Positions 14,753 through 48,937 of a stretch of 64,000 nucleotides of DNA are shown one piece after another. Within the stretch, counting starts at the first letter, position 1, and each line of letters opens with the position of its first letter. Source of the stretch: Nemertoderma westbladi (Eukaryota; Animalia; Xenacoelomorpha); NCBI GenBank assembly GCA_032718475.1, contig JAUCBJ010007289.1:310001-374000 (forward strand). The letters are read 5' to 3'. A program made the translations under genes and the position numbers. Below the pieces are notes generated by a model. That model saw nothing but the letters and a program-made list of their open reading frames with translations, was not told the origin of the DNA and searched no databases.

Positions 14753-15955
14753 TGTACGCGCTTTTGAAGACCTTTAGCAGTTTAACCTGCCAAAATTTAT
14801 ATGTCTTTTGGTTTATAAATAGACTTTAGAAATTGACAAATATTTAATACCAATAAACACAACATTAGCAGAAGCCAGCCTAGTGCGCGTCCATTCACCC
14901 GCTGGATATACCCGGGAGACTGGATTCTGAGGGCTTAGATTGTTATTGCAGTGTAAGCTTACTGTATTATTCGATTGATCGCTAATAAATAATTTCTGAC
15001 CAATATTATTCACTTTCGGGAAATATTAACAGTTCCTTTAGGACGTGGCGCTCTATCTAGGTAAACAGAGATATGACTTATACTAAACACAACGGTAAGT
15101 CGGTAAGGCTTATGATTCACGTATGAGGCGCATTCTTTAGGAAATGCTTAGTTATCAGCCACAATCATGCACACTACCGGTAACACACAATACTGCTCAC
15201 TAATTTGCCGACCATCAATGAATTTTATCATATATAAAGAGAACAGCAACTGACTCATGTAGTGCTTATCAAATAGCATTAAATTCACTACAAACCACAA
15301 TAATATAAGTCGCAATCACTATATGTAACCCATCTCTCTAACCTGTAGTGTATAAAGAAAATTGGGAAATTTGGGTTCTTTATAGATGTTCTCCAAATAA
15401 TATTCAACCAAATGATACAAAATATGACAACAGTAAATATCAGTCTAATAATGTATGTTGAACCGATAATGTAAGACTGAACTGGACTGTTAAGACTGAT
15501 TGAGTTGATTGAGCCGATAACAGTTATACGCTCTATAATCTAAGCCTACTAATGTTTCTTCTAAAGTCTGAAACGAATTGACTCTAGAGCCGGTGTTCTT
15601 GGCCTAGATAGAAACAACACAACAGTATCACAAAAAAACAGTAAGACTGAACACTCCTAGCATGATCTGCCAAATATCTCCACATCGACAGAAAAAATCG
15701 CTCTGATTGGCTGTTAAGCTAAACAAAGAACCATGTGTCCAATGGCCGTTTCCATGTCAGCAACCAGCTGTTAGATGTCGTAATCTGAATCATCAAGGCT
15801 AAGCTGTGCCAGGGTATTTGACGCATTGCGGGTTTTTTGCCTTACCATGTCCGCCAAAGCACACATACAGAAGAATGACCTTTATGTCCGTTAAAACACC
15901 TATAACGGTACCTTGCGGGCGAGGGGGACTGATTATATCCGCAAAAGCTTTTACA
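14753..15955 (-). repeat. 3' LTR of element 1 (1203 bp)
   Basis: Matches 32428-33622 except for about 7 substitutions and an 8-bp indel. On the minus strand it is preceded by the purine tract GGGAGTGG (PPT-like, 15956-15963). Confidence 0.95.
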
Positions 15956-16033: not shown

Positions 16034-19000
16034 TTAGTCTTTCTTGCGCGGACGGCGTTTACGCAGTTTTTTAAAGCTAGCCAGAGTCTTTTTCTCTTTG
16101 GGGCGAGCCACTTTACAAGGAGGGCTATAACTCCTGGGTGAAGGGTGCAATATAATTGCATCAGAGGGTGTAGGATTATGGTCGGTGTATCCGCCAGTCG
16201 AAGTGCTGGGTTGATTGACATCAACGTCGGGGGAGAGGGGTCTAACGGCTTTAAGAGCTCGTTTTAAGACAGCCGCTCTTACGGGTCCTTTACGAGTGGT
16301 CTGAACGAGAGCCGTGGGTGGACCATAGGCAGTTAGAAACCTCCGGGGTTTAATGGTTCTTTCCAACTCGCGTTCGCGGGCTCGGTATTCGTAAGGCCGT
16401 CGATATACTTCCTGTAACTCGGGGTGTGAGTTAACAAATAAGTCTCCATAGTCCGGATCCTGACGGATATAATTGATTAAGTTATAGGAATGAAGGTCGC
16501 TAGGATTAACACTCCTGAGAAATTTGCGTACGAATTTGGTTGAAATACATTCTCCGACGCGCTTCAGTAGTTCGTAACTCGATATGCGTGATTTCTGTTC
16601 GACAGAAGCGAATAGATAAGGATGGAACGCATAAACTCCTTCGTAAGCGCGTCCAGGATAATAACGATGGCGCGAATCACAATGTAAATCAGCGTTCGCT
16701 TCCCAAGCTCTGATGTAACGTAGTGTGATCATTTCATCTACGCTTTCCAAATCGCGATTAAAAGGGCAATCGAAACTGGCGTGTCCCTTTAGTTGACAAT
16801 GGTGACATTGAGTCATAAATTGAGGGCAAACCGCAAAAATGTGCAAGTTATTGAGTCTGCAATATGCGTAATAAATTTCCATAGTCGGTTGTTCTTGGAA
16901 ATAGGAACAGCGGACGTTTGTGTCCATGGGCGTATCATGGTCTCTCGATGCGCATAACCGACAACGTTGCCTAGAAACATAGTTGGCATGTCGATAATCG
17001 TACGCAGTGAGACACTGTGGACCTTGATACCATTCTATGATGTAATCGTTGTCGCTGTTCCGGGGCGCGATAGGCTGAATCTCCTCAGATTCTAGACATA
17101 TTGGTTCGTCTTCCAAGTGCATAGCTGAGGTGGGCGTGTCTGTCTCTTCAGGTGGACCTATTGTCTGAATTTCCATGACAGAATAACCTGTGGGGATTCG
17201 AGGTCTTTGTATAACAGAGGAGTGCAAGTTCGATATACAAATCTCTTTGAAAATGGCGAATCCAGCGCTATCCAACTTCTCTGCAGCTGAGTTTCTTAGG
17301 CTGAGCTTGGTCAAAGCGCGGTCTTTAAATTGGCTATCCACGTTGCGGAACGGGGTTAAAAATCGCCGGAAACATTCGAAGCGGATGAATTTATTATGTT
17401 CATCTAGCTTAGCGAGTTTGGTCCCAAGTATTAATGGATGGGCGTGTATAGTACGACTGCACACATCGGCTAGCCAACCGGCAAGTGCGGTGTTTTCAAA
17501 GATCGTGTATATAGCTAAGGAGGGACGGAGTGGAACACTCATGAAGCTATACACGGCGCCAGGTGCGGTCAATGGTCCATCAAAGTATAATCGAGAATAA
17601 TGGTCTCCGTATACTTGTTGATAGTTAATGGGATTTCCGACTTTGAAATTCCATCCGTATTCCTGAAAGGCAAGATGTCCGATGGAAGTTCGTTGCACCT
17701 TTGTAATGTTGCTAGACGTATTAGCATACATGGTGCGGAAGAAACCTCGACCTTCTGCCCAGGGAGCAATCAGCTGAGTATCAACGAAAGGGTATGGAAT
17801 GTTCTCCATATTCCGAAAGTCGTTTTGGAGATCTCCATAAACAGCTGAGCCGATTTTAAGGATTCTTTCGTTGAACAACATCTCGAGTACTGGCTGGGGT
17901 AACATCGATCCATCGATACCCATGGCCGGTTTGCGTTCGGTGTCAATGACGTAACGCTGCGCGAGTTCGAATTGTCCATGTCGGAGATTCTTTTGTGTTT
18001 CGGTGAGAGTTTCAAAGGAATAATCAATCACGTCGGAACACGCTCGAGTAAACACATGGGTAGAACCAGCTAATCCGCGTATGTGGATCATGCGCGTAGT
18101 TCCTAGTTCTCCGACCGGAACGCTACCTTCATTATCGTAGGTGACAACTCCATACATCTCAATAACATTAAGAGTTTCATTCCACTCCTTGGTGGCGTTC
18201 TCTAGGGTCATCCCTACTGGATGCCACAAGGTGGCGCATTGGTTAGCGTCAGGGAGATCACTATACTTCATGTGCTGAGTGGTATACGTCTCCACATTTC
18301 CATATCTTTGTATTTTCTCTTCTTCAAATAATACATCTAGATTCCAATGGACTAATCGAGTTTTAATAAATCCATCGAGATTATAAGGGGGTTCTATATC
18401 TTTCTCGATTCTAGAAATGTTATATGGTTTTCTAAATGAGTTTACCTTTACTAACTGATCCAGATGTTTCTGCAATTGTTCGAGTTCGACAATGTCTAGA
18501 GGATTTATTAGTGGTAGAAACTTTAAATTATGCGTCGGGTCTTCTGGTTTTACCATATAATATTGAGTCAGATTAACGTAATAAGGGTGGTCTTTAATCC
18601 CATAAAACGAGTTCTGTAAAGGTCTAGCGCGTATGTTGACATCGTGTACCATACGACGGACAAGATCCGCTCGATTGTCCGGAGGTTCAACGAGTATACC
18701 GTCAACACGAGCGGCCTCAATCGGCGGACGCTGTAACATAGGGGCTTCAGCGATAAGATTTTGCGATCCTGTACTGATATCAACCGGTTGAGGTTGTATC
18801 GTCGCGAAGAGTTTGTCTCCGAAATGTGGAATCATCGAGGGATGACGAACGGTTTTAGAGTAGAGATCTGTCATAAGGATTTGAGCTTCGGGTTGGGCTA
18901 AAGCGGCTTCTTCTCTCTCGTCCATTTTCGTGTGTTTCTCCTCGAGTAGATTTTCTTCCGCTTGTCTCTGTAAGCGTTCATCTAAAAATTCTTGTAGAGA

Positions 19001-19264
19001 ATACGTGCGTCCAAGCTCGATGTCTTCCTCGAGGTTTTGGATTTCTCTATCGAACTGTGGCAAGGCTAACTCCTTCACCGATTGGACTTGTTGTTGTAAT
19101 TTACGTTTCTCTAAACAATCTTGTGTTCCCTTTCCGATCTTCTGTCGAATAGCGTCTAAAGCGTTTCTTATAACGCTCTCCTCGACTTCCGTGGCGGGTT
19201 GCATCGGGTTTAATCCTGGACGATTGTAAGGATCAAAGGGCGATATTAACTGCCCGCGTCCCAA
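16034..19264 (-). CDS. Element 1 accessory ORF, C-terminal part: coiled coil, DEDDy-like 3'-5' exonuclease domain, CCHC knuckles and basic tail
   Basis: ExoI VTYDNEG, LPQPVLEMLFNERILKIGSAVYGD (ExoII), FVDTQ and ExoIII-like YTIFE. Knuckles CRLCASRDH and CHHCQLKGHASFDC. Homologous to 52743-55292. Confidence 0.75.
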   Translation of the reverse strand: MGRGQLISPFDPYNRPGLNPMQPATEVEESVIRNALDAIRQKIGKGTQDCLEKRKLQQQVQSVKELALPQFDREIQNLEEDIELGRTYSLQEFLDERLQRQAEENLLEEKHTKMDEREEAALAQPEAQILMTDLYSKTVRHPSMIPHFGDKLFATIQPQPVDISTGSQNLIAEAPMLQRPPIEAARVDGILVEPPDNRADLVRRMVHDVNIRARPLQNSFYGIKDHPYYVNLTQYYMVKPEDPTHNLKFLPLINPLDIVELEQLQKHLDQLVKVNSFRKPYNISRIEKDIEPPYNLDGFIKTRLVHWNLDVLFEEEKIQRYGNVETYTTQHMKYSDLPDANQCATLWHPVGMTLENATKEWNETLNVIEMYGVVTYDNEGSVPVGELGTTRMIHIRGLAGSTHVFTRACSDVIDYSFETLTETQKNLRHGQFELAQRYVIDTERKPAMGIDGSMLPQPVLEMLFNERILKIGSAVYGDLQNDFRNMENIPYPFVDTQLIAPWAEGRGFFRTMYANTSSNITKVQRTSIGHLAFQEYGWNFKVGNPINYQQVYGDHYSRLYFDGPLTAPGAVYSFMSVPLRPSLAIYTIFENTALAGWLADVCSRTIHAHPLILGTKLAKLDEHNKFIRFECFRRFLTPFRNVDSQFKDRALTKLSLRNSAAEKLDSAGFAIFKEICISNLHSSVIQRPRIPTGYSVMEIQTIGPPEETDTPTSAMHLEDEPICLESEEIQPIAPRNSDNDYIIEWYQGPQCLTAYDYRHANYVSRQRCRLCASRDHDTPMDTNVRCSYFQEQPTMEIYYAYCRLNNLHIFAVCPQFMTQCHHCQLKGHASFDCPFNRDLESVDEMITLRYIRAWEANADLHCDSRHRYYPGRAYEGVYAFHPYLFASVEQKSRISSYELLKRVGECISTKFVRKFLRSVNPSDLHSYNLINYIRQDPDYGDLFVNSHPELQEVYRRPYEYRARERELERTIKPRRFLTAYGPPTALVQTTRKGPVRAAVLKRALKAVRPLSPDVDVNQPSTSTGGYTDHNPTPSDAIILHPSPRSYSPPCKVARPKEKKTLASFKKLRKRRPRKKD

Positions 19265-19269
19265 TCCGG

Positions 19270-20286
19270 CTAAGTAGGATGGCGAATGTCTAACGAACCC
19301 ACTACCGGAGCACCACCGAATAATTGTTCGGGTAACACTAAGTCTTTGAACAGGGAATATAGTTCGGGAGGATCAGTGATACTGTTAGGATCAAGAGTTT
19401 GAGGTCTCACTAGAGAATGAGGAGGCCTGACCGAGTATTCCGGAACTCTGATCATGGGTTTATTCAGTGATCGTTTAAGACGAGCGATCGTAGGTGGTAC
19501 GTCGAACAGGTTTCGCTCGAAACTCCCGTAAGTGTAACGTGTAAAGCTGTGTTTAGCGCAACGTCTCCGCGGATGTTTATGTCTTTCAGTTTGTTGGTTG
19601 GGTCTAGGGCATTCGTCACAATAATACCAAAGACGTACGTCCTGCAGAGGAAATGCGGGTGATCGTTCTCCAGTTTTGCAGTATTCTTCCATTTGTTCAA
19701 AACTATCCGGGATAACAGGTAGTGGACGATCGGCGGTAAGATACATCATAGTGAAATAGAGCCGTTTGAGTTCTACCACAGGGTCATGATGTATACCTTG
19801 AGGATATCGAGTCTCTAGGTTCTGCTGACTGGCGATGTTGAGATAGGTTTCTCTCAAAAATTCTAGGTATTCGTTGAAGTCGATGCGTTTATCCGGTTCT
19901 TCAACGTTTTCTCTTTCCAGTCTATTACGAATAGAATTTTCGTGATCTATTCTCGGTTTATCGTTACGACTCCGCTGGGTATGATATTTAAATAGAACCA
20001 TTTCCCTCTCTGTATCTACATCGTCCGTATCATGTAAATCGATAGGATGGCCGGTAGTTAAGAAGTCCGTATACGTACCATTACGATTCGTATAGCGAGC
20101 GGTGAATTTTCGATAATCCAATTCATGCGCAAGTTGTTCTTGGGACATCGGCGGTTCGATATAACGACCATCGTCCTCTGTAATGGTTGGATCGGCTTCA
20201 CCGCGTATTAAGCTATCCACAAATGCTTGTAAAGGTAGAGTATATCGCTCCCTAATACCAAGATCATCTTCTATCAACTCCGTCAT
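19270..20286 (-). CDS. Element 1 accessory ORF, N-terminal part (338 aa); probably frameshifted from 16034-19264
   Basis: ATG start and a Cys/His cluster YCDEC..RCAKH. The homologous region of element 2 reads CGC CCA TCT TAC CTA GCC GGA, which suggests a 1-nt loss in element 1 near 19283. Confidence 0.65.
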   Translation of the reverse strand: MTELIEDDLGIRERYTLPLQAFVDSLIRGEADPTITEDDGRYIEPPMSQEQLAHELDYRKFTARYTNRNGTYTDFLTTGHPIDLHDTDDVDTEREMVLFKYHTQRSRNDKPRIDHENSIRNRLERENVEEPDKRIDFNEYLEFLRETYLNIASQQNLETRYPQGIHHDPVVELKRLYFTMMYLTADRPLPVIPDSFEQMEEYCKTGERSPAFPLQDVRLWYYCDECPRPNQQTERHKHPRRRCAKHSFTRYTYGSFERNLFDVPPTIARLKRSLNKPMIRVPEYSVRPPHSLVRPQTLDPNSITDPPELYSLFKDLVLPEQLFGGAPVVGSLDIRHPT

Positions 20287-21942: not shown

Positions 21943-24900
21943 TTAGGGAGGTGGTCGTGGGAAGAGTGTCTTGCCTTCCATAGTTTCCGGAGAGTTCTCT
22001 GTCTCTTTCCAGTAAACATAAACGACCAACTGGGCGGTTGAGTTGTGCGTCTCAAATATTATGCCTGGCTTCTTGAAGTTACGCCGCATGACGACGAGTT
22101 CTACCGAGCGCACTAAACCATCATCCGAGATGTGAGTCTCGATGATACGACCTGTCTGCCACCGTTTACGTGGGAGGTCTGGATCTACAATAAGTACCAT
22201 ATCTCCGGCGCTGACGTTTTCTTGCTGCGCAAACCACTTAGTTCGAAGTTGTAGCGTGGGCAGATAATGTTTCTCGAAATGGTCAGTGAAATGACGGGAT
22301 AGCAACTGCATAAGTTGCCAAGTTCGACGGCAGTATTCGTCTCCGTCGGCAATCTCCGATCGTGGGAGCATGGCTACAGGTTTCTTCAGTAGGAAGTGCG
22401 CGGGTGTTAGCGCTTCCAGGGAATCGGGACTCGATGAGACTGGCATAAGCGGTCTCTCGTTGAGATAGGCAGCTATTTCCTCCATTAATGTCCATAAAAG
22501 TTCGTCGGTGAGATACGCGCGGCATGGCACTATAAAGTGAAATGCGGTCTTGACACTTCTAATTAATCTCTCCCAACTTCCTCCCCACCAAGGGGCGTCG
22601 GCGGCGTTGAAGGTCCAGCTAGACGCTGTTATCCTTAGCTGATCGTCCACCTGTCTTTGGTTCCAGTCCTTCACGTAAGCCTGTATTTCGTTGTTGGCAC
22701 CAATGAAGTTCGTTCCCTTATCCGATCTCATGGTATTACTCGTCCCGAAGCGAGCGATCTGTCGGCGTAAACTTAAGACGAAGCTGTTGGTAGATAGATC
22801 GTTCACCATATCGAGATGGATGGCTCTACAAGTCATGCATACGAAGATGACACACCATCTCTTGACTATAGTCCTAGCACGATATACTTCAATAGGGCCA
22901 AATAAATCTACACCAGTATTAGTAAAAGGTGGTTCATAGAAGCTTACTCGTTCCCTAGGTAATTCTGCCTCTCGCTGTGTTAAAGGCCTACTGAATGCTT
23001 TCCTACAGGGTATGCAGTTCCTAAGAACTTGGTTCAGAGCTCTACGGGGTTTATAAAAATAATAGCGAGTTCGGATTTCGCTAAGAACTCGTTCTCTACC
23101 AGCATGATAAAGTTTGCTGTGAACATCTACAATCATCTTGATTTGTACTTCAAGATTTCTAATGAGTATGGGGAATTTAGTGTCAAAGGATAATGGCGCA
23201 TTGGTGAGCCTTCCTCCAACACGTATTAACCCATCTATCATTGTGCTAGAGAAGCGATCCCTTAAGCGCATCTGCGGATTTCTCAACAACAGGAAATACT
23301 TATCGGAATCCTCATAGCATTGCAGGAGTCTCAGTATCTGCTTATTGGTTTCTTCATGCTCCTGGTAACCAATTTTCTCTTTTAGAAACCGGTTGGATGT
23401 CTTATATTTGGGTAAATTTTTAATAACATGAACTTGCGCAGATGTCAATGGAGCGGTATCACTAATGGTCTTCGTCCTGAAGTAGTGATGATGAAAACAT
23501 CGCCTTAAATATGTGACGGCTTTACAGAGCCGATTCCAGGAACTGTAATGATGCATTGCTCTCTGCAGCATGGGTGAGATTCCTTGCGAGACGTCTGGTA
23601 TTCCAGATTTCCAATCTCTATCTCTAATTTCCACAACAGACTTATTTGTGGCGAGGGATTGTGGATCCGAAGCATAATTTCCGGAAGTATGTAATACAGA
23701 TAGATCGATCGTCGGTTTAAATAACTTCGATTTACTCGCCCGGGTTTTAGGTTTGACTGTCTCCGCTCCCTTGGCTTGTCTAATCTCCGCCGTAGTAAGG
23801 TGAGGAGGCCATTCATCCTCTTCCTTGCTCAGGAAGTCGGGTCCACCCAACCAGTCTGGAGTATCTATCAGTTCCTGTGGAGTTGCTCCCCGGGAGGCAA
23901 TATCGGCTGGATTAATCGTACCAGGGCAATGTCTCCATTGATCTATCTTTGTGCGACTAAGAATAATAGCTACCCTGTTAGTAACAAAAACGCTGAACTG
24001 ACAGACTTCATTGGTTAGATACTCCAACACGAGTAAAGAGTCGGTCCAATAAACCGTTTTCTCCAGTGGATAGTCGATTTGTTCTGTTACGTTCCGGCCG
24101 ATGGCTGTAGCGTATAAAGCCGCCTTTAACTCCGCTCGAGGAACCTTTAACTTGTTGTTAATCAATGCCTTAGAGGTAACCAAGGCGACTTTGATTCCAT
24201 CCGGAGTTTCGACTCGAAGATATGCTACTATACCTATTCCCATGTCGCTGGCGTCTCCAAACACATGGAGTTGATAGGAATACGTAGGAAGAACATGACC
24301 AAAATATGCACGGGAAATTATAAAGTTCTCGATGGCCGGTAGAGAATCTTCCAATTTCATCCATTTCTTCAACAGTTCTCCCTTAAGCGGATCGTCCCAT
24401 GAGTGGTTTTCAAGCCACATTTGTTGTACTAAACTCCGAGCAATCAATATAACTGGGCTAATAAATCCCAATGGGTCGAAATAAGTGCTCAGGATACTTA
24501 AACAAATCCGTTTGGTCCGAACTGGATTATCTCGCTGTTTTAGCTGAAAAAACAGGATATCTTTTTCAGCGTCCCACTTCAAGCCAAGCATCTTGGTTTC
24601 TGGAAGATCATCCTTTATTAAGTCTAGGTCTTTCGCTCCTCGGTCTTCTACCGGTATCGCTTCCAGAAACTCACGGGAGTTGCTGGTGAATTTCGTCAGT
24701 CGAAATCCACCTCTTTTCAAACACTCTACCGTTCCTTTCGCGACATCTATGGCTTCTTCTACTGATGGAAGGGACCTTAAATTGTCGTCCATGTATATAT
24801 TACGTTTGATGTTGTCTATCACCTCTTTGGAGAAGGCGTCTCGGTTGTCATTCGCAGTGGTTCGCACCACGGAGCAGGTGTTGGAAGGGCTTGATATGAT

Positions 24901-25137
24901 CCCAAAAGCCTGGATGGTCATCCAGTACTCTACCGGTTTCTGGTTGAGGTCTCCTTCAGGCCACCACAGAAATCTCAGACTGTCTCTATCTCTATCCAGC
25001 GCCTTGACTTGTAAGAACATTCCTTCTATATCGGAGGCGAACGCGATGGAATATTGTCTTAATCTTAAAAGTATTCCCAACAAAGATTGGAGTAAGTTGG
25101 GTCCTGGTAACAACTCGGAATTGAGGGATTGGCCCAT
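21943..25137 (-). CDS. pol: Element 1 pol: RT, RNase H and integrase (continues the gag-PR frame past a premature stop)
   Basis: DIEGMFLQV, YMDD, HVFGDAS, YWTDS, NPADIASRG, H..H..C..C, GVDLFGP, SDKGTNF and GGSWER. There is an apparent frameshift near 22045, before RPVGRLCLL. Confidence 0.92.
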   Translation of the reverse strand: MGQSLNSELLPGPNLLQSLLGILLRLRQYSIAFASDIEGMFLQVKALDRDRDSLRFLWWPEGDLNQKPVEYWMTIQAFGIISSPSNTCSVVRTTANDNRDAFSKEVIDNIKRNIYMDDNLRSLPSVEEAIDVAKGTVECLKRGGFRLTKFTSNSREFLEAIPVEDRGAKDLDLIKDDLPETKMLGLKWDAEKDILFFQLKQRDNPVRTKRICLSILSTYFDPLGFISPVILIARSLVQQMWLENHSWDDPLKGELLKKWMKLEDSLPAIENFIISRAYFGHVLPTYSYQLHVFGDASDMGIGIVAYLRVETPDGIKVALVTSKALINNKLKVPRAELKAALYATAIGRNVTEQIDYPLEKTVYWTDSLLVLEYLTNEVCQFSVFVTNRVAIILSRTKIDQWRHCPGTINPADIASRGATPQELIDTPDWLGGPDFLSKEEDEWPPHLTTAEIRQAKGAETVKPKTRASKSKLFKPTIDLSVLHTSGNYASDPQSLATNKSVVEIRDRDWKSGIPDVSQGISPMLQRAMHHYSSWNRLCKAVTYLRRCFHHHYFRTKTISDTAPLTSAQVHVIKNLPKYKTSNRFLKEKIGYQEHEETNKQILRLLQCYEDSDKYFLLLRNPQMRLRDRFSSTMIDGLIRVGGRLTNAPLSFDTKFPILIRNLEVQIKMIVDVHSKLYHAGRERVLSEIRTRYYFYKPRRALNQVLRNCIPCRKAFSRPLTQREAELPRERVSFYEPPFTNTGVDLFGPIEVYRARTIVKRWCVIFVCMTCRAIHLDMVNDLSTNSFVLSLRRQIARFGTSNTMRSDKGTNFIGANNEIQAYVKDWNQRQVDDQLRITASSWTFNAADAPWWGGSWERLIRSVKTAFHFIVPCRAYLTDELLWTLMEEIAAYLNERPLMPVSSSPDSLEALTPAHFLLKKPVAMLPRSEIADGDEYCRRTWQLMQLLSRHFTDHFEKHYLPTLQLRTKWFAQQENVSAGDMVLIVDPDLPRKRWQTGRIIETHISDDGLVRSVELVVMRRNFKKPGIIFETHNSTAQLVVYVYWKETENSPETMEGKTLFPRPPP

Positions 25138-25164
25138 ATATAGAGTAGAGCCATCGAATACGAC

Positions 25165-28100
25165 TCATACTTCGTGGGGTTTACCGGGTTTGGGAACGTA
25201 ATGATGTGTTAAGTAATACGTTCTCTCAGTCACTGGTGTTCCTTCCGGTACTCGCTCCGCGTATCCCTTTGTTATAAATTTCTTCAACTGAGTTTGGTAC
25301 ATTTCTTTAGCTGAAGCATTGGCCGTAAGGCATTGATGTAATTGAGCGATTCTTTTCTCTGCCAAGGGTCTGTTATTTATAAATCTAGGTTCTCGTTTTC
25401 GAAATGGTAGGCCGATTTCATATCTACCTTGGTCCTTTAAAAAACGTGTAGTTGTTTCCTGGATTTGCTTGGCTCTTTCTTCTTCTATCGATAGGGCCTT
25501 ATCGTATGAATTGGGCTCTACCAATTCTTGAGTAAAGAATCGTACGGCGAGTTCGTCCCGAGTTCTGGCGTTGTAGCGCTCTATCTCATCATTTAGTTCG
25601 TCATTGTATTCAATGGGTCCCGATGGGCGAATCAGTTGACATAGGTTCACCTGGTTTTTCCACGTTTTGTTTTCTGTAAGTAGGTCGATTGTGTTCTCTT
25701 CATCGAAGAGTTGGTAGATGTCGTCATTATCTGAGGAGTATGGTGTTCCCTCAGTTAGTTCGTCCACCTCACTGCTCTCCTCTTCCCAATCGTTTACTTG
25801 GTATATTCGTTCTTGTGGCATTCTCTCTTCGAGAGTCCTGCGGGAAGGGCCAGTAAAGTACCAACCTACTCTAGTTCTTACCGCATAGGTTTGCAGTGGC
25901 TGCGGTTGAGCAGGCCGTTTCTCCAATGTTTCGAGCACCTCATGCGCGTTTTGGCCGATGAGTATTTGCACTCCAGGATAATCTGTCTGGAATCGAGGTA
26001 TCTTAAGATGTTGGATGCTCTCATCCTCGTCCCAATTATAAAGGTCTGCTTGGGTAGTAGCGAAGTTCTTTATAGCCACCATTTTTACCGACCTTATACC
26101 TTGTGCTCCTAATTTATCCTGGGGGGTGGACAACACACCTACATAGTAATCTGCCGTTAGGGTAGATTTCCAAACCTGCATAATTCCTGACATATTCAAT
26201 TTAGTCCGGAATTTGGGTTGTCCAGCAAAGATATCTTCGGCTAGTTCTTGATCGATGAATGTTCCTGTGCTGCCGGAGTCAAGGAGGGCGTTCACTATGT
26301 AACTTTTGTTAGGACCGTGAACTCTTACCTGCACTACAGGAAATTCTCTGATTCCTACGTTGGAAGTTGGAGCTTTCCAAGATGGTTGTCTGGCAAAAGT
26401 AGTTGGGGGAAACTCATTGTTGGTGTCCTTTTCATAAGTAAGTGCTCGATACACCGCGGTATTGATTAGATAACAGGATTCGTTGGCGTCGGAGAATTCG
26501 TCAGTATAGAATCCTTCCATCTCAGATTCTTGATCAGTGTCATTTACATCACTGAATTGGACATGTAGTTCGGGCTCACTTACCTGACTCGGGTTGTCTC
26601 GTTCGAACTCACTGTGTAACAAGATGTTATGTTTCGCGCCACACTTTGCACACTTTACGTCGGAGTAACAGGTTCGCCGTTGGTGTCCTGGTCTGAGGCA
26701 ATTATAGCATAACCGCTTATCCCACACGACTGCACGTCTGTCTACAAGGGATTTCTTTAGAAATTCAGCACACGCACTCAAACGGTGGGTCCCGTCGCAC
26801 AGCGCACAGTTAGGTTTTATGTTACTCACTTTACCTTGGGTAACCTGATGCACTCTCGTTCTTTCTTCGGGCTTTCTTCCGCGCATTCTGTTAGGAGACT
26901 GAGGAGGGGTCTTGGCAACCTGTTCTCTCCTATCGTTGGTTCGAGCCTTGTATTTACTTACGTCCTTTGAGGTTTTGCCAACGTAGTAAGATCGATCAGT
27001 GTCTTTCCCGCTGTCCTCTTCTTGAGAAGCTTGGCTTTCGCCGTCGTCAGTGTAACACACCGGTGTTACTCTTCTCCTAGAAGCGGGTTTCTCACTTACC
27101 TTATTTTCCGATGTTTTCTCTCTGGACTGCTTGATGAGTTGTAGTTTTACTTCACCATCTAAGAAGGACATGAGATCAGCCATGGTAGGGCTTCGTCGTT
27201 GTTGTTCATTCATGTACAACACTTTCTTGTCCCAGCGTGTACATACTCCACCCTTTGGTAAAGTAGAGACTACGGCTCCAATAACCATGGAACTCTGATA
27301 TTCATGAGATTTACCTAACCAGTCCAATTGTCTACAGATCTCCTGAATCTCATCGGAAAACTCTATAATCCCGCTACTAAGAAAGTTTCGGGGGGCTACT
27401 AATTTTGCATACAAATACTTAGCTATGTTATCCTTGTTACCATACCTGACGTTTAATGTATCCCAAACTTGTCTTAATCCTTCTGGATGTCCAATAAACT
27501 TTAACGCCATTAACTTGGGAGGTCCTTCCAAGCACTTGATGAGGAATCTAAGTTTCTCTCCGTTAGATAGTACAGAGTTCTGTATGCTATCTTTGTAATA
27601 TTCATTGAAAGGTAACCATTTCATCTCATCTCCATTGAATTTAATGATCTCTCCCACTTTGACCGCTTGGCGGGCTTCTGTTCTAGCCATCTGACGCGTA
27701 AAGCTTTCTTGGGCCATCGTGTTATTTAATATCGAATTATCGGTATATAAATTTCTCGGATCATTATCAGGTCTATAGGGAATATCATTAACAACAGGTT
27801 TATAATCACCCTTAATAGGGTTTGCTATAGGAGTTTCTACTTCACTAGCAGTATAGATGCGTGTAGGCTCCACACCTTGCGCATGTAATACTTCAGACCT
27901 AACAGGTTGACACAATGTTACTGGGGGTATTGGTATACCCTTTTGTATATTGACTAATTTGTCGCGTTCTAGCGCGATACTTCGCTGCACTTCTTGCAAT
28001 TCTGCCCTACCTTCCCTTACGGTTCCCTTAAGTTGGTGGACAGTCTCCTGCATCTGTCCGAGCAGGAGATTCATCCCCCGACGTCCCTCCTCTACCCACT

Positions 28101-30075
28101 CGACCGCCGAAGCGGGAGTCGCCAACATTGTAGCGGGCCGACGCGGGACGACGGGAGACAAATCCTTGATTTCTCTCTCAGTGCCCAGGACAGGGATATT
28201 CTCATGGACTGTTCTACCGGGTACAGGCAGTGTAGTACTGTGTAAAGGGAATTTAGAGTTAAGCTCTGGAAGTACAGGGGTCTCTAGCACAGGAGTGGCT
28301 TTGGGAATGACAGGCCTAATTATTTCAGGCTCATCAACTATAGTAGGGAGTCTTTTGACCTTAATAATTTGGTCTGTAGGTTCTATACTACTTAAGTCTG
28401 TGCTAGCTAGTTGTCTTCTAACAGCTGGGGGCAAATCAGGCAATTTGTGACGGTGAGATGTTTTTCTACGCCTGCTTAGACGAGATCTATTTCCTCCGCC
28501 TTCAGGATCGGTGGTTTCGCTTTCCTCCGATGATGTGTATCCCTGGCGTTTGGGAGTAGATCTTCTCATCATCTGCATGTGACTAGCAGTTAACTGTTTA
28601 TTTATGTTGTCTTGCGTCTCTTGCAGATTTTCCAACTCCAGTTGGGTAGTCTCCTCAGACGCTCTCCGTTCTGCTTCTGCCACTGCCTTTGCTGCTTTTC
28701 TTTCTACTTCTGCTTCTGCCATTGCCGCTGCTACTGCTGCTGCCTTTCTTTCCACTTCTGCTTCTGCCATTGCCGCTGCTACTGCTGCTGCCTTTCTTTC
28801 CACTTCTGCTTCTGCCATTACCGCTGCTACTGCTGCTGCCTTTCTTTCCACTTCTGCTTCTGCCATTACCGCTGCTACTGCTGCTGCCTTTCGGTCCTCT
28901 ATCCGTCTTTTCTTTACTTGTTCTTCTTGGACTCTAGCGAGGCGGAGTTTTTCATCAAATTTAGCTTGGTTCGCAGCTAACATTTCCGCATCGATTGAGT
29001 CCAACACAAGCTTGGTTCCTTCACTATTGGGGCGAAGTCCAGCCAGTCGTCTCCTCAACCCACGAACTTCATCACCCAAGAAGCGTTGATAGTCTGACAG
29101 ATAGATGTCTATGGCGTCTCTCCAGGGCGGCTTCTCTGCTGCTGTCTCTTCGCTTTCCACTTGAGAAAGGGTGGCATTGGTTGGTTCTTCATAGGTTGGT
29201 CTCTCAGCCAGCTGGGATTTCCACTGGGCCGTTTCTTGAACTTTGAGACCTACCCGCTGGAACCAAGTCTTGACAGCAACCTGCAGCAACGTGTCCTGTC
29301 TTCTTTTGGAAGTTTCCTCAAAGGCTGATAGGATTAGTCTAATGCGTAGGGTTCTTTCGCGTACTTGATAAAGCAGCTCTTCCTGCTCTTGAGGTCCTTG
29401 GGGTTGTCGAAACAGTTGTTCTTCCAATCTCTCTAAGGAGCCGAAGAATCCCTGCACATATCCTGCTGCCGACCTCTTCCAAACAGCTGGATCCATCGTA
29501 TCTTTAGCCACTCCCATCCTGTGTATATCTTCCCAAGTAGCTTCGGACAAATCTAACGGGAGTCCGGGTCCGGGAAAGTTCCATTGTGACTCGACAATAG
29601 ACATCAATTCTTCCCTGGCGTATCCCGCATAACTATCTTGGGTCGCTCGCTTACTTCTCGCCCAATCGGCTTGATGTTCCTCCACCGCAATCAATATTGT
29701 AGTTAGCACTGCGGCAGGAAGGGTGAGAAGGGGATCCGAGTAGGCTGTAGCCGCCATCTGCACTCCGCGTTCGGGGGTCAGCTCTACAGTATCCGAACTA
29801 CTGGAGCTATCGGGTCGCTGGGAACGAGTTTCTTGACTAGGATGTTGCTGCTGTTGGACAGCTGCTTCCTGGTTCCGTTTGACTTGGGCCCGAGTGCCGA
29901 TGATAGACCTACGGTGTTGGATTAGCTTAGGGTCTGATACTACTACTGGAGGGATGACCTTTCTTTCAGTAGGAGGTGAGCTGAACTCCTTTCTTAATCG
30001 CTCCACTCTCCTATCTGTGTCACAGATGGTTGTATCGATTAGACTGTCTGACAGGTTTTGCTGGGTGTCAGACAT
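25165..30075 (-). CDS. gag: Element 1 gag and aspartic protease
   Basis: KFNGDEMKWLPF, the BEL triple Cys-His knuckle (CALCDGTH..C, CYNCLRPGH..C, CAKCGAKHNILLH) and protease ALLDSGS. It ends at an in-frame TGA in HEV*VVFDG (expected RVVFD). Confidence 0.92.
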   Translation of the reverse strand: MSDTQQNLSDSLIDTTICDTDRRVERLRKEFSSPPTERKVIPPVVVSDPKLIQHRRSIIGTRAQVKRNQEAAVQQQQHPSQETRSQRPDSSSSSDTVELTPERGVQMAATAYSDPLLTLPAAVLTTILIAVEEHQADWARSKRATQDSYAGYAREELMSIVESQWNFPGPGLPLDLSEATWEDIHRMGVAKDTMDPAVWKRSAAGYVQGFFGSLERLEEQLFRQPQGPQEQEELLYQVRERTLRIRLILSAFEETSKRRQDTLLQVAVKTWFQRVGLKVQETAQWKSQLAERPTYEEPTNATLSQVESEETAAEKPPWRDAIDIYLSDYQRFLGDEVRGLRRRLAGLRPNSEGTKLVLDSIDAEMLAANQAKFDEKLRLARVQEEQVKKRRIEDRKAAAVAAVMAEAEVERKAAAVAAVMAEAEVERKAAAVAAAMAEAEVERKAAAVAAAMAEAEVERKAAKAVAEAERRASEETTQLELENLQETQDNINKQLTASHMQMMRRSTPKRQGYTSSEESETTDPEGGGNRSRLSRRRKTSHRHKLPDLPPAVRRQLASTDLSSIEPTDQIIKVKRLPTIVDEPEIIRPVIPKATPVLETPVLPELNSKFPLHSTTLPVPGRTVHENIPVLGTEREIKDLSPVVPRRPATMLATPASAVEWVEEGRRGMNLLLGQMQETVHQLKGTVREGRAELQEVQRSIALERDKLVNIQKGIPIPPVTLCQPVRSEVLHAQGVEPTRIYTASEVETPIANPIKGDYKPVVNDIPYRPDNDPRNLYTDNSILNNTMAQESFTRQMARTEARQAVKVGEIIKFNGDEMKWLPFNEYYKDSIQNSVLSNGEKLRFLIKCLEGPPKLMALKFIGHPEGLRQVWDTLNVRYGNKDNIAKYLYAKLVAPRNFLSSGIIEFSDEIQEICRQLDWLGKSHEYQSSMVIGAVVSTLPKGGVCTRWDKKVLYMNEQQRRSPTMADLMSFLDGEVKLQLIKQSREKTSENKVSEKPASRRRVTPVCYTDDGESQASQEEDSGKDTDRSYYVGKTSKDVSKYKARTNDRREQVAKTPPQSPNRMRGRKPEERTRVHQVTQGKVSNIKPNCALCDGTHRLSACAEFLKKSLVDRRAVVWDKRLCYNCLRPGHQRRTCYSDVKCAKCGAKHNILLHSEFERDNPSQVSEPELHVQFSDVNDTDQESEMEGFYTDEFSDANESCYLINTAVYRALTYEKDTNNEFPPTTFARQPSWKAPTSNVGIREFPVVQVRVHGPNKSYIVNALLDSGSTGTFIDQELAEDIFAGQPKFRTKLNMSGIMQVWKSTLTADYYVGVLSTPQDKLGAQGIRSVKMVAIKNFATTQADLYNWDEDESIQHLKIPRFQTDYPGVQILIGQNAHEVLETLEKRPAQPQPLQTYAVRTRVGWYFTGPSRRTLEERMPQERIYQVNDWEEESSEVDELTEGTPYSSDNDDIYQLFDEENTIDLLTENKTWKNQVNLCQLIRPSGPIEYNDELNDEIERYNARTRDELAVRFFTQELVEPNSYDKALSIEEERAKQIQETTTRFLKDQGRYEIGLPFRKREPRFINNRPLAEKRIAQLHQCLTANASAKEMYQTQLKKFITKGYAERVPEGTPVTERTYYLTHHYVPKPGKPHEV
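28690..28890 (-). repeat. 48-bp coding tandem repeat in gag, (KAAAVAAxMAEAEVER) x4
   Basis: Visible at both the DNA and protein level. Confidence 0.9.
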
Positions 30076-31399
30076 GTTTAGCTATACAGTTGAATGCCTA
30101 CTGCTATAGTTACAGTTAAAGCAAGTCTAGTAATTCAGTATGACCGTTGGCCTAGTACCGTTAATTTATTACAGTATATTAGAATACCGGTATACACTTA
30201 TAATATATATAAGTATTGTAAACTAGTTTTGTCACAGAGTACCAGTATATAATTTTAGCACAAATATATATAAATATATAATACGCCTATCATGAATACC
30301 GGTATACAGCTTACACTTATAGTATATATAAGTATAATTATGAACTAGAATTAATTACAGAATACCGGTATGATTTCAGCCCAAATTTATAGAAATAAAT
30401 ATAATAAGCCTATGGTAAATACCGGTATGTCAATTATTTTAGAATAATTGAATTTCTGAATATTTTAGGGTTACTTGGTTACTTTAACTTACTTTATTAC
30501 CGTTATTTAAGCAGTAGTCCAACTGATATTGAGACCTAGTTGTTGTATGGCAGGCCTACTATTTATAAATCGTTTGAGTTGATTTATAATATTTATATAC
30601 CCATTTAAAATGGGTTTTGTCAATATTTGAAATAAATGTTATTATTTCTGGGGGAAGTCACTACACAGAAGCTGTGCGCTCTCAGTGAAGTGCTACTTAT
30701 GGGACACTAAAACAGATAATTCTAATTTACCTAAGTTACTTAATACTACAAATTACTTACAATACGGGTGAGATTAAATCTCTAATTAAACACAACAAAA
30801 TATTACGTACGAAATTTTTAGGGTAATTTTACAGGAAGTCTACAAACCAGCCTAACAAAGGGTTAGAATTCTGGTTATTACAACGGACAGGGTACTACGG
30901 TATTTGAAAATAATAAGTAGTAGTAAATACACTGCGTTGTCCAGATAGGAAAATACCACCGCCTGACGACCTATAGCCGTATCGCTGTAGGTACTACGTT
31001 ATGTATCACGGAGTGTTCCTACCTGGAAGTTAATTACCGCGGACTACCAGATCCAACGTGCCTATTAACCACTTTACAACACAAATATACTGCCTACACA
31101 CTAATTACCTTCGGAAAGCACTGTACACTAAACCCTAAATTAGGTACAAATACTGGTACAACAAATAATCAGTAGTTAAATATACTTGAACAGTTAAAAG
31201 AACCACGGCATCTGCTGGAGTGACCGGAGCACAAAGTCACCAGTCTTTACCTACGCCAAGCAGCCCGTGTAGTACCGGGGTTAATTTAACTATAACGGTA
31301 TGTGTAACAAGCACAATTACTGTAGGAATAAACTTGGGGACATGAATGTTGCGAATAATCGCATAAACTCTGAATAATAAATATTACGCTACCCGTACA

Positions 31400-32416: not shown

Positions 32417-32427
32417 ATAACTGTTAT
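32417..32427 (-). promoter_or_regulatory. Atypical primer-binding site of element 1 (ATAACAGTTAT), complementary to its own LTR
   Basis: Abuts the 5' LTR, does not start with TGG, and is the exact complement of the LTR motif at 33184-33194 and 15517-15527. Confidence 0.7.
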
Positions 32428-33622
32428 TGTACGCGCTTTTGAAGACCTTTAGCAGTTTAACCTGCCAAAATTTATATGTCTTTTGGTTTATAAATAGACT
32501 TTAGAAATTGACAAATATTTAATACCAATAAACACAACATTAGCAGAAGCCAGCCTAGTGCGCGTCCATTCACCCGCTGGATATACCCGGGAGACTGGAT
32601 TCTGAGGGCTTAGATTGTTATTGCAGTGTAAGCTTACTGTATTATTCGATTGATCGCTAATAAATAATTTCTGACCAATATTATTCACTTTCGGGAAATA
32701 TTAACAGTTCCTTTAGGACGTGGCGCTCTATCTAGGTAAACAGAGATATGACTTATACTAAACACAACGGTAAGTCGGTAAGGCTTATGATTCACGTATG
32801 AGGCGCATTCTTTAGGAAATGCTTAGTTATCAGCCACAATCATGCACACTACCGGTAACACACAATACTGCTCACTAATTTGCCGACCATCAATTAATTT
32901 TATCATATATAAAGAGAACAGCAACTGACTCATGTAGTGCTTATCAAATAGCATTAAATTCACTACAAACCACAATAATATAAGTCGCAATCGCTATATG
33001 TAACCCGTCTCTCTAACCTGTAGTGTATCAAGAAAATTGGGAAATTTGGGTTCTTTATAGATGTTCTCCAAATAATATTCAACCAAATGATACAAAATAT
33101 GACAACAGTAAATAGCAGTCTAATAATGTATGTTGAACCGATAATGTAAGACTGAACTGGACTGTTAAGACTTGATTGAGCCGATAACAGTTATAAGCTC
33201 TATAATCTAAGCCTACTAATGTTTCTTCTAAAGTCTGAAACGAATTGACTCTAGAGCCGGTGTTCTTGGCCTAGATAGAAACAACACAACAGTATCACAA
33301 AAAAACAGTAAGACTGAACACTCCTAGCATGATCTGCCAAATATCTCCACATCGACAGAAAAAATCGCTCTGATTGGCTGTTAAGCTAAACAAAGAACCA
33401 TGTGTCCAATGGCCGTTTCCATGTCAGCAACCAGCTGTTAGATGTCGTAATCTGAATCATCAAGGCTAAGCTGTGCCAGGGTATTTGACGCATTGCGGGT
33501 TTTTTGCCTTACCATGTCCGCCAAAGCACACATACAGAAGAATGACTTTTATGTCCGTTAAAACACCTATAACGGTACCTTGCGGGCGAGGGGGACTGAT
33601 TATATCCGCAAAAGCTTTTACA
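32428..33622 (-). repeat. 5' LTR of element 1 (1195 bp)
   Basis: The minus strand reads TGTAAAAGCTTTTGCG...CAAAAGCGCGTACA, with a CCAAT box near 33375. Confidence 0.95.
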
Positions 33623-36004: not shown

Positions 36005-37242
36005 TGTTCGCGCTTTCAGACCTTTGGCAGTTTAACCCGCCAAATTAGGATGTCTTCTAGATAATAAATCGCTTTAGCCTCTAACAAGTATTTGATTCAC
36101 TACACTAGTTGAAACCAATCTGTGCGCGATCATTCACCCGTTGGATATACCCGGGAGATTGATTTCGACAGCTTAATCTTATTGCTATGTAAGCCTAATG
36201 TATTATTCGACTGACAGTATTATATAATCTCTGACAATATTATTCACCTTCGGGGAATATTAACAGTTCCTTTAGGACGTGGCGCTCTATCTATATAAAC
36301 AGAGTTATGACTTAAACTACTCACAACGATATGGCTCAGTTATAATTCACATATATGTCGCATTCTTTAGGAAATGCTTCTTTATCAGTTTCACTCATAC
36401 ACAATGCTGCACAATACTGCACACTAATCTGCCAATCTTCACTGATTTTAGTCACATATAAAAGGAACACAGACTGGCTCATGTAGGGTCTATCAAATAA
36501 CATTAGATTCACTTCAAACCACTTTAACATAAGTCACAATCGTTATATGTAACCCTTCTCTCTTACCTTCGGTATATCAAGAATATTGGGTTTTCGGGGT
36601 TATTTCTCGTTATTCCAATATAATAATTCATCAACAAATATAATGAATAACCGACAGCAAAATCAGTAAAGTTAAGGTATAAATGATTTGGTATGGTATG
36701 CCGCATTTATGGATGTTATGCAGGTCGATAAAGGATATATGTCCTTATAATTAAGCCTACTAGTGTAAGGCTAAAGCAGAAAAGCACAAAATACTCTAAA
36801 GCCGTTCTTCCTGGCTTAGAATCACTAACAACACTGATAAGAATAACTATAAGAATACCAGCTACCCTTATTCCACGAAGCTCCCGTCCAACACAGAGGA
36901 TGAGCATTGAGATAGGAAAATTCAGTTCAGTAGCTCTGTGATAGGTCAAAATCAAAGCCAACTCAAATCCTATTGGCAGATACAGAAAGCTGCAACGTGG
37001 CAATATCAGCCGTTAGCCGTCGTCATGGTAGCGACACTGTTTTCAAGAGTATCGAGCTTTTTACGTCATGAAATTGCAGATTATGTCCTCTAAAGTACAA
37101 ATACAGTTCAAATACAGAAGAAATGACTTTTATGTCCTCTAAAACACCAGTACAGCAAGGACACGGCCTTTTTATGCCTGGCAAACCAACTACAGAGTAC
37201 TTTAAGGGAAAATAACCGGTTAATGACGCAAAAGCTTTTACA
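36005..37242 (-). repeat. 3' LTR of element 2
   Basis: Plus strand TGTTCGCG..AAAGCTTTTACA; PPT-like GGGAGCGG on the minus strand at 37243-37250. Confidence 0.95.
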
Positions 37243-37320
37243 CCGCTCCCAGAAAATGGGATTTAAGTCTATAAAATATAACAAATCACAGTTTCTAAAA
37301 TATAAAGATACTCTAAACAG

Positions 37321-38646
37321 TTAGTCTTTCTTACGCAGACGGCGTTTACGCAGTTTTGAGGCTAGCAAGATTCCTTTTCTCTTTGGGGCGAGCCACTTTA
37401 CTAGGAGGGCTATAAATCCTGGGTGAAGGGTGCAATATGATTGCATCAGAAGGTGTAGGATTATGGTCGGGGTATCCGCCGTTTCGATATGCTTCCCCTC
37501 GAGCTGATTTTCCTCCGCTCGTAGCTGGATACGTTCATCCAAAAACTCTCGCAGAGAATGGGGGTTGCCTAAGTTCGATATCTTCTTAGAGATTCTGGAT
37601 TTTACAATCGAACTGAGATAAAGACAATTCGTTTATCGCTTGGACTTGCTGTTACAACTTACGTTTATCTGAACAAACGCAGGTTTCCTTTCTGATCTTT
37701 GTAGAATAGCGTTTAACTCGTTTGTACAACGCTCTCCTTCACCTTGATGAAGGGTTGTATCGCGTTAAACGGGAACGACCATACGGTTGGATAGTGATAT
37801 TAGGTGTCCGCGTCACAATCCGGCTAGGTAAGATGGGCGACTAGCTAGAAATCACTGTCGGAGTGTTACCGATTAATTGTTAGGGTAGCACTAGATCTTT
37901 GAACAGTGAATACAGTCCGCGAGGATCCGTCATACTAATAGGATCAAATCAAGAGTCTGAAGTCTCACTGGGGAATGAGGAGTTCTAATCGAGTATTCCG
38001 AAACTCTGATCATTGGTTTATTTAAGGATCGTCTGAGTCGAACGAGCGTAGGTGATACATCGAACAAGTTTCGCTCGAAACTCCCGTAAGTATAGCGAGT
38101 AAAACCGTGTTTAAAGCAACGTCTCCGCGGATGTTTATGTCTTTCCGTTTATTAGTTGGGACTAGGGCATTTATCGTAATAATACCAAAGACGCACGTCT
38201 GGTAGGGGAAACGCGGGTGATATTTATTTGTTGTTACAATGCTTCTATCAAGAATTCCAAATATACGTTGGAGTTACCGCGTTTATTTGTTTCTTTAGTG
38301 TCTTTTCTTTCGAGTCGATTTCGAATAGAATTTTCGCATTCGAATTTCAGTTTATGGTTCCGACTCCGCTGGGCAGGATATATAGTCGACATAGTCCGTA
38401 TTATGTAAATCGATAGGATGACCAGTAGTTAAGAAGCCCATATACGTACCATTACGCTGCGTACATTTTTCTATAGTCCAACTCACGCGTGAGCTGCTCT
38501 TGGGACATTGGCGGTTCGATATAACGACCATCGTCCTCCGCAGCAGTTGGACTAACGTCGCCGCGTATTAAGCTATCAACAAACGCTTGTAAAAGTAGAG
38601 TATATCGCTCCCCGATACCAAGACCATCTTCTATCAACTCCGTCAT
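37321..38646 (-). pseudogene. Decayed accessory ORF of element 2 (exonuclease and knuckle domains deleted)
   Basis: The MTELIEDGLGIGERYTL start and KLRKRRLRKKD end match element 1; it has stops, frameshifts and large deletions. Confidence 0.85.
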
Positions 38647-40352
38647 GTCTGCTATATATGAGTTTATCCATATTATAATGAGTTTATATTTAGGCGAGCG
38701 GGCGTCGCTGCCTACCCCAATCAGCCCCCGGACAGTGCGAGATCCTCAGCACCGATGTGTCGTCGCCGCTGTACTTTCGCCAACGACGTAGCCGCACAAC
38801 GACAATGACAACCGGCACAAGTCACTCGACTGTCCGTCCCAAAGGCTTAGATACACCTCAGGTTCTTACTGGAGAGTTAGGGTTACTTTCACAATTGCGA
38901 CTCGCTACTGTAAACACACCTTAGTAGTAACATTCGCCTATAAACTCACAAATACCACACACACAACTTGTCACAAATTACACACACTCGGGCCATTTGT
39001 CCGTTAGTCAATGCCTTCCAGAATGTCACTGTATTATTATGTATCCTTGGATACTAGCAGTGCGCTATTTATTCCCTATGCTATTCAATGGGACAAGCTT
39101 TCTATTTTTCTTTTAACTCAATTCTAATTCTAGCGTGGTTGTTGCTATGGTGACATTATGCAAAGCTAGCGGTAGAATTAGGGTAATTCCAATGCATACA
39201 GATCTGGGATGTTATTTAATAGTAATTCTTTAATGGTCAATGTCCTGTTTTATACATGACTTTATGAATTTTATCGGCTATTGACTATGTTTGGGAGACT
39301 TTCGCACACGCATACGCATAATAATATAAATCTCCGCTCCCTTGATCTATTAATTAATGGAATTTTGGGAATGTTATAAATTGCGTAAAATGGCAATTTA
39401 TTAAATTCATTAAAAGACATGAATTTAAATTTATTCCCTGAAATTTTATTATTTGATAATTAAATAGACATATTTTGATTCTAGAACATGTCTGGGGACA
39501 CAAGATCCTTAATTCTATGAAAATTGTCCTTTTAAGAATATCGGTAAATGCTACGATATCTTAATTGACTAGAATTGTTGAAGGATCTGAATTTTACAGA
39601 TTTTGACTTATTAGATTTGCAAATATTAAATAATTAATATTTGAGATGGGCACCGATTTATTCCAGAACTTGTCTGGGGACGTTAACCACTGATTCTATA
39701 ATTTGTCTTTCAAGTATATCGGTGGGTGCCACGATATCTTAATCAACTAGAATTACAGATGGTCAAAGGGTTTAACAGATTTATTTTGCGTTATACGCTA
39801 CTGTTAAAGGGACATCACGCTACTATATGTATTATTTAATATACGGTATGAGAGCAATATCGCACGAAGCAATGTCAGTGTGAAGAGGCAAGTCGTTTCC
39901 AAGGTCTACCCAGAGCTTGGTTTAGCCGAGACACGAGGATCTGAACTTTGCATTCCTAATACTCTGCCTACCAATAATACTTGAATATAGTAGTGGCTTT
40001 ATTGTACTTTAATAAGTACGGACATTTCATCTTAATGCTTCATCTACTTCTTCATCTACAACTTCATCTTAATTTCATCTTTGTAATGTAATACGGACAG
40101 TAAGGAAGAAGGAAAAGAATTATTTCTTGCCGTCGCATTAAATATAATATATACGTAATTAAGTAATAAACGCGAATATATATTGCACTAATCTACTAAA
40201 TAATCGCTAAAATAACATTCTACTGAATAAAATTAAAGAAAACGATTATAATAGAATTACATAGTAATACATACATAAATATAAAAATAATAAAATAATA
40301 TAAAATAATAGAGTCACACACCCACTCCATATGTTGTTACGTTATGGAGTCC

Positions 40353-46873: not shown

Positions 46874-46884
46874 ATATCCTTTAT
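46874..46884 (-). promoter_or_regulatory. Atypical primer-binding site of element 2 (ATAAAGGATAT), complementary to its own LTR
   Basis: Abuts the 5' LTR and is the exact complement of the LTR motif at 47608-47618 and 36728-36738. Confidence 0.7.
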
Positions 46885-48885: not shown

Positions 48886-48937
48886 CATCTCTCTATCATT
48901 CGCATGAAAATCCTAATTTCCTATTCTATAACATTAA

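Follow-up and report, generated by a model that had tools for sequence, protein, structure and literature searches.

A predicted exonuclease-like and zinc-knuckle gene in the env position of two BEL/Pao retrotransposon families of Nemertoderma westbladi

Introduction

What is encoded by the third gene of an unusually long BEL/Pao retrotransposon in the genome of Nemertoderma westbladi, and what might its product do for the element? The stretch analysed (GenBank assembly GCA_032718475.1, contig JAUCBJ010007289.1, positions 310,001 to 374,000; the whole 64 kb are called the window) is repeat-rich eukaryotic DNA in which three BEL/Pao long terminal repeat (LTR) elements are relevant, all of them on the minus strand: element 1, which is complete; element 2, its deleted sister; and element 3, a truncated member of a different family. 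An earlier note on this DNA had proposed that the gene in the env position of element 1 (ORF3) encodes a DEDDy-type 3'-5' exonuclease with CCHC knuckles. As judged from profile and motif comparisons, an exonuclease-like and knuckle gene is present in the env position of two distantly related BEL/Pao families, and ORF3 of the element 1 family, the sole family tested, is under strong purifying selection.

BEL/Pao elements are metazoan, have an 18-nt tRNA primer-binding site and measure 4.2-10 kb according to their profile by the International Committee on Taxonomy of Viruses (PMC8742986). The extra genes mentioned for them are env-like alone (PMC8742986 and the excerpted texts of PMC3118150 and PMC13524379); the word exonuclease is absent from the main text of the latter two, and none of four sought terms is present in PMC7943196. 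In env-bearing BEL/Pao elements (roo, and the mosquito elements with a chuvirus glycoprotein; PMC8742986 and excerpts of PMC13524379) the additional gene sits downstream of pol and upstream of the 3' LTR, as in element 1, but it encodes a fusion glycoprotein, whereas the product predicted here is soluble and nuclease-like. The literature searches found no report of an exonuclease, DEDD or RNase D gene in BEL/Pao, in agreement with the novelty supposed by the earlier note, and database annotation of such a gene may exist. The precedent it had named is real: the LTR elements Juno1/2 and Vesta2/5 and the Athena/Terminon elements of bdelloid rotifers have a DEDDy-exonuclease ORF3 (excerpts of PMC5408684 and PMC6431247), with the motif DEED and an untested activity (PMC5408684, same excerpts). 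The excerpted texts of PMC5718144, PMC6338049 and PMC6431247 repeat the rotifer cases and name none in BEL/Pao.

Results

Position, frames and parts of ORF3 in element 1

ORF3 of element 1 runs from an ATG at 20286 to a stop at 16034, beginning 1,656 bp past pol and ending 78 bp short of the 3' LTR, and is thus in the env position claimed for it. The 4.25-kb coding region announced between pol and the polypurine tract is in its place, with a length of 4,253 bp, but it is not one open reading frame in this copy: two frames make it up, 20301-19270 (343 aa) and 19372-16034 (1,112 aa), with about 100 bp in common. Length variants were found in this overlap in three of the four runs of contigs from other copies (about 13%, 40% and 85% of the local depth), so the element 1 family probably includes copies with one continuous ORF3 frame and copies in which it is split. 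A programmed -1 frameshift in the overlap was rejected, the slippery heptamer being absent. There is an internal ATG at 19204, upstream of the exonuclease part. The N-terminal 339 aa, which are under selection and absent from ORF3 of element 3 and from the metagenome protein P0004 described below, include a Cys/His cluster that might bind zinc.

The motifs read by eye stand where they had been placed, on the minus strand: DNEG (18136-18125), LPxxV (from 17902), KIGSAVYGD (17857-17831), VDTQ (17785-17774) and YTIFE (17509-17495). Three CCHC knuckle-like units follow (16963-16766). The third alone fits the canonical CX2CX4HX4C; unit one is stretched to 9 residues in its final spacer, and unit two is without its initial Cys. 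The ORF3 knuckles may derive from the Gag of the elements themselves, to which they gave only weak matches (E 0.009-0.9). The highest 19-residue hydropathy of the ORF3 proteins is 1.1-1.3, without a transmembrane segment; the signal peptide and membrane anchor of an env glycoprotein are thus not seen, and for this reason the product is not env-like.

The ORF3 proteins and P0004 form a three-member family

Element 3 has an unbroken ORF3 whose exonuclease-like residues are D120, E122, D195, Y292 and E296. When the ORF3 proteins of elements 1 and 3 were compared by BLAST, the knuckles alone aligned (E 3e-5). The third member is P0004 (648 aa), a metagenome protein that was the sole phmmer match (E 2.7e-6) among 1.84 billion representatives, and it bridges both window proteins, with E 5e-14 and 5e-10 for their exonuclease parts and 2e-14 for the knuckles of element 3. 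P0004, known as a protein alone, is a singleton from a 9,449-bp ENA contig; its knuckles resemble retroviral nucleocapsid (E 1e-4). Word-indexed homologue searches over limited length ranges gave no match, contig scans of metagenome and viral collections gave no homologue, and tblastn of P0004 in phages and plasmids gave no match.

The three members are pairwise 22-26% identical and all have the same layout: an exonuclease-like domain, a low-complexity linker, three knuckles, a short conserved domain and a basic tail. The motifs occur in the same order in element 3 (52743-55301) and in P0004, and the variation among copies of element 1 is strongly synonymous (see below), indicating that the motif pattern seen in element 1 is beyond chance.

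Homology to DEDDy exonucleases

The three-member profile matched an alignment of RNase D domains in hhalign at 96.1% (E 2.8e-9, 107 columns across motifs I-II); the reversed profile reached 0.4%, and none of 60 block shuffles attained the score (best 47.5%). The RNase D alignment consisted of 25 domains: 24 from the 30 best bacterial loci, and that of E. coli. These loci came from a search of 401 bacterial genomes, 141 of which had matches to the profile (E <= 0.05). Almost all of these matches fell on the same positions of the profile, and all of the best 30 loci were PF01612. Against 177,635 PDB sequences the profile had four matches, with EXD2 and RNase D at the top (E 0.11 each) and the other two unrelated; EXD2 and RNase D would thus tie as the nearest subfamily. 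Single-sequence PDB searches returned no matches or irrelevant ones. ESM Atlas, queried with the two window proteins one at a time, returned PF01612 clusters in both cases (0.92 and 0.94), which is a lead only, since its family consistency was mimicked by a third of shuffled proteins.

The domain resembles the RNase D/EXD2/WRN type (PF01612) in motif I (DxE), motif II (K...D), the DxQ and the tyrosine of motif III, all of which align. Motif I DxE and the Asp of motif II are invariant in the three members, which bears out these parts of the proposed DEDDy assignment. An alternative motif I register for element 1, DYSFE, was picked by MAFFT and hhalign and was rejected because it lacks the Glu; in gapless block scans DYSFE scored -8 against 23.5 for DNEG with the family blocks, and 0.7 against 5.2 with the RNase D blocks, so DNEG keeps its place as motif I.

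Several results weigh against the assignment. Motif III, which aligns with the RNase D YxxxD in the joint alignment, is YxxxE in all three members and not the canonical YxxxD, a departure that the earlier note had not remarked. The RNase D set was selected with the same profile, a bias towards the match; single members performed poorly against it (element 3, 7.6%; element 1, 86% in the wrong motif I register). Pfam, which had been suggested as a check, did not recover the domain in either window protein and gave it in P0004 at E 0.2. AlphaFold2 reached a pLDDT of 30 with one sequence and 35 with three, values uninformative as to a DnaQ/RNase H-like fold; its inputs were kept free of RNase D sequences to avoid a biased fold. 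The domain also differs from the RNase D/EXD2/WRN type in its 30-40-aa insertions (in element 1, about 30 aa between motifs I and II, after the third strand), in the motif II to III spacing (97-108 vs 66 in RNase D), in having knuckles and a disordered linker in place of HRDC, and in falling below the Pfam cut-off. On these comparisons, the ORF3 domain is DEDDy-like and is not a canonical DEDDy member.

The non-canonical motif III and the large insertions relative to RNase D would suit a dead or weak DEDD derivative that serves only to bind RNA or Piwi-pathway proteins, like Maelstrom or EXD1, and inactive DEDD derivatives do act in piRNA biogenesis (excerpts of PMC5408684). Against this rather unlikely explanation, all three members retain the four acidic residues and the tyrosine despite an identity of only 22-26%, and a dead enzyme would not need them. 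The exonuclease-like domain is probably an active two-metal nuclease, despite the Glu in place of the last Asp.

Selection among copies

Of the 40 variants listed for the exonuclease domain, 33 were synonymous, 22-30% being expected (ratio of nonsynonymous to synonymous polymorphism, pN/pS, about 0.06-0.09; P <= 6e-12); these variants are the best-supported 40 of 199. None of the seven amino-acid changes listed fell at a catalytic residue, and the listed variants included no indels, though some contigs diverge by 10-19%. Across the whole ORF3 region, 20 of the 30 classified variants were synonymous among the variants listed (40, with 1,123 further ones; 31 of the 40 lie within ORF3, one of these, in the overlap, was left unclassified, and three sites are common with the domain set). 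The comparison of elements 1 and 2 by codon position gave differences of 0.16/0.13/0.25 and 0.24/0.16/0.40 in the two ORF3 frames and 0.08/0.08/0.24 in gag, an excess at third positions that was not seen in the spacer (0.12/0.12/0.11).

A fragment of a host gene might also have been captured recently and be neutral; the earlier note had named a recent neutral capture among the outcomes that would undo its proposal. Such an origin would fit the split frame of this copy and the loss of the domain from element 2. The low pN/pS, the presence of the same layout in two families whose pol is 35% identical, the absence of introns and the want of a close cellular relative among the 1.84 billion proteins (P0004 being the one match) all argue against it, and we regard such a capture as very improbable.

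The host elements and their primer sites

Element 1 (33622-14753, 18,870 bp) is a complete element with a 5-bp target duplication (AACAG on the plus strand). Its LTRs differ by 7 mismatches and one 8-nt gap. The insertion lies within a 63-bp tandem minisatellite that is present at 14677-14752 and 33623-34317. The BEL/Pao domain order was recovered (DUF1759, a weak Asp protease, Peptidase_A17, Integrase_H2C2 and DUF5641, with Pol in the order protease, reverse transcriptase, RNase H and integrase), together with three Gag knuckles, in support of the identity given earlier, and elements 1 and 2 have the structural features of the group: TG...CA LTR pairs, target duplications and a polypurine tract. 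The departures from a typical BEL/Pao are the 18.9 kb and an 11-nt self-complementary primer site; with primer site and length treated as typical traits, element 1 is, by its Gag/Pol homology, an atypical BEL/Pao element. Its length is about twice the BEL/Pao size range, with a 2.3-kb repeat-rich leader, and its Gag-protease frame exceeds 1,600 codons, including alanine/charge-rich repeats.

Most of pol is missing from element 2, as is the segment of ORF3 for the exonuclease-like domain and the knuckles. What is left of its ORF3 has decayed and is uninformative on whether the family frame is continuous or split, and the joint of the ORF3 deletion was also found in run X1 at a depth of about 408. 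Element 2 is a very young non-autonomous deletion derivative and may represent a multi-copy subfamily. Element 3 is 5'-truncated (about 61089-51568); its pol is 35% identical to that of element 1 over 444 aa, and no second copy of its LTR was found in the window.

Table 1 Features of the three BEL/Pao elements in the window (positions are those of the window).
Feature	Position	Strand	Description
Element 1 5' LTR	32428..33622	-	TG...CA, 1,195 bp
Element 1 primer-binding position	32417..32427	-	11 nt complementary to own LTR (33184-33194); 23 of 20,000 LTR shuffles
Element 1 gag-protease and start of reverse transcriptase	25165..30081	-	DUF1759, three knuckles; in-frame stop ends the frame in this copy
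Element 1 reverse transcriptase, RNase H region, integrase	21943..25164	-	Peptidase_A17 (1e-36), Integrase_H2C2, DUF5641
ORF3 first frame	19270..20286	-	339 codons from ATG; no known family; 10 of 16 listed copy variants synonymous
ORF3 second frame	16034..19372	-	1,112 codons: charged region, exonuclease-like domain, linker, knuckles, basic tail
Predicted DEDDy-like 3'-5' exonuclease domain	17430..18205	-	D413, E415, D514, Y622, E626 (P0001 numbering)
Three CCHC knuckle-like units	16766..16963	-	one canonical, two deviant; then short domain common to the three members
Basic C-terminal cluster	16040..16072	-	9 of 11 K/R; possible nuclear localisation signal
Element 1 3' LTR	14753..15955	-	1,203 bp; purine-rich tract just before
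Element 2	36005..48122	-	recent sister of element 1 with deletions; 2 sites differ between its LTRs; CTCGT duplicated at the target (plus strand)
Element 2 primer-binding position	46874..46884	-	11 nt complementary to own LTR (47608-47618); 15 of 20,000 shuffles
Element 3 truncated gag and broken pol	56477..61089	-	different BEL/Pao family
Element 3 ORF3	52743..55292	-	unbroken, 849 codons: exonuclease-like domain, linker, three knuckles, basic tail
Element 3 probable 3' LTR	51568..52102	-	TG...CA after G-rich tract; boundaries approximate

Elements 1 and 2 appear to be self-priming, a trait that the earlier note had passed over. Their 11-nt primer sites are complementary to their own LTRs and differ from each other at three positions, each of which is matched in the LTR partner site (compensatory changes); a 9-bp hairpin follows the primer site, and in neither element do the 40 nt next to the 5' LTR include a TGG that would mark a tRNA site of that type. 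The self-primed LTR retrotransposons Tf1 and sushi, of the Ty3/gypsy group, have an 11-nt primer site complementary to their own LTR and are not known to have an exonuclease ORF3. Element 1 is like them in its 11-nt pairing and unlike them in being BEL/Pao and in having an exonuclease-like ORF3.

The primer site raises the explanation that the nuclease matures RNA 3' ends for replication, by paring a cleaved fragment of the element's transcript back to the 11-nt self-primer. The self-primer of Tf1 is made by its own RNase H, which counts against it, as does the fact that element 3 lacks its 5' end, so that the pairing of the two traits is seen in one family. The compensated LTR pairing in place of a TGG-type tRNA site speaks in its favour; the nucleocapsid-like knuckles of P0004 suggest that the protein could be brought into particles, and RNase D-type enzymes trim structured RNA 3' ends (excerpts of PMC5408684). 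We consider this role rather unlikely. Unlikely, too, is its fuller form, that a giant self-priming BEL/Pao lineage encodes a D-E-D-E exonuclease with nucleocapsid-like knuckles which trims its own transcript into the reverse transcription primer; trimming of a transcript piece into a primer by such an enzyme has not been described for any retroelement in the literature surveyed.

The length of element 1 (18,870 bp, vs 4.2-10 kb for BEL/Pao) would instead suit proofreading or trimming of cDNA during reverse transcription, permitting an unusually long genome in the way of the nidovirus exonuclease (ExoN), a precedent described in excerpts of PMC7968707; EXD2-type domains were also among the top PDB matches. 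The gene is separate from pol, with no built-in link to the reverse transcriptase, and much of the extra length is ORF3 itself and non-coding spacers. Larger LTR elements without such a gene exist as well, and proofreading is accordingly a quite improbable role.

Other repeats in the window were: an 830-bp element 1-like pol fragment, 85% identical, on the opposite strand (3473-4302, plus); non-LTR reverse transcriptase fragments (716-2137, plus, with RVT_1 and DUF6451; and 48158-48892, minus); a 36-37-bp tandem array (55727-56318) between pol and ORF3 of element 3; and a possibly Penelope-like fragment (48968-49958), with a GIY-YIG-like frame recognised by eye (49235-49804) and a perfect 170-bp inverted repeat on its flanks.

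Discussion

Proposed role of the ORF3 product

We favour, tentatively, a reading in which the third gene product is an RNase D-like 3'-5' exonuclease that is tethered to RNA by its zinc knuckles and acts in trans, protecting the element from RNA silencing or decay imposed by the host. ORF3 would be made from its own subgenomic RNA, in the manner of env, because it begins 1.2-1.7 kb past pol and has AG acceptor-like sites just before the ATG. The knuckles would hold single-stranded RNA and the nuclease would remove RNA from its 3' end; its likeliest targets would be small RNAs or antisense RNAs directed against the element, and, judging by the basic tail, this may happen in the nucleus. Taken jointly, these steps are possible, at a strength somewhat short of an even chance. 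Two points favour counter-silencing or RNA protection: the gene is decoupled from pol, and similar nuclease genes have arisen as ORF3 in LTR lineages that are not related. Their occurrence in unrelated Ty3/gypsy-like lineages (excerpts of PMC5408684) suggests a benefit of a general kind and not one bound to a single step of replication.

Three observations stand on the other side. The rotifer families with DEDDy ORFs are still covered by small RNAs, and their copy number is not clearly higher (excerpts of PMC5408684). The basic tail is strong in element 1 alone, with 5 and 6 of 11 basic residues in the other two members. Some copies of element 1 are apparently frame-split, and element 2, which does not itself encode the domain, has transposed recently.

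The viral ExoN of arenaviruses and nidoviruses is DEDDh, a different exonuclease subfamily, and belongs to RNA viruses, so that it offers a functional analogy alone. The likeness is that of a captured 3'-5' exonuclease in an RNA-based replicator, with counter-defence or proofreading as its use; arenaviruses use theirs against host defence (excerpts of PMC7968707).

The closest known genes by description are the rotifer DEDDy ORF3s, which share with the present one a stand-alone RNase D-like gene after pol in the env position, the lack of a transmembrane segment and an altered catalytic tetrad. They differ in their hosts (Ty3/gypsy-like or Penelope-like vs BEL/Pao) and in their residues (DEED vs D-E-D-E), and the excerpted text of PMC5408684 describes no triple knuckle and reports no selection test for them.

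Meaning for retroelement biology

The two families described here extend nuclease capture in the env slot from the Ty3/gypsy-like and Penelope-like elements of rotifers to a third group of retroelements, and the element 1 family adds evidence of strong purifying selection, which was missing from the rotifer study of DEDDy ORFs. The exonuclease-like domain is small enough for stand-alone expression and assay, which makes the question posed in 2017 about the job of such ORFs a testable one. To our knowledge, little is known of enzymes with which animal retrotransposons counter silencing. The repeated capture of an exonuclease, here with RNA-binding knuckles, suggests that LTR elements share a need that is still unexplained, the most plausible one being to counteract RNA silencing.

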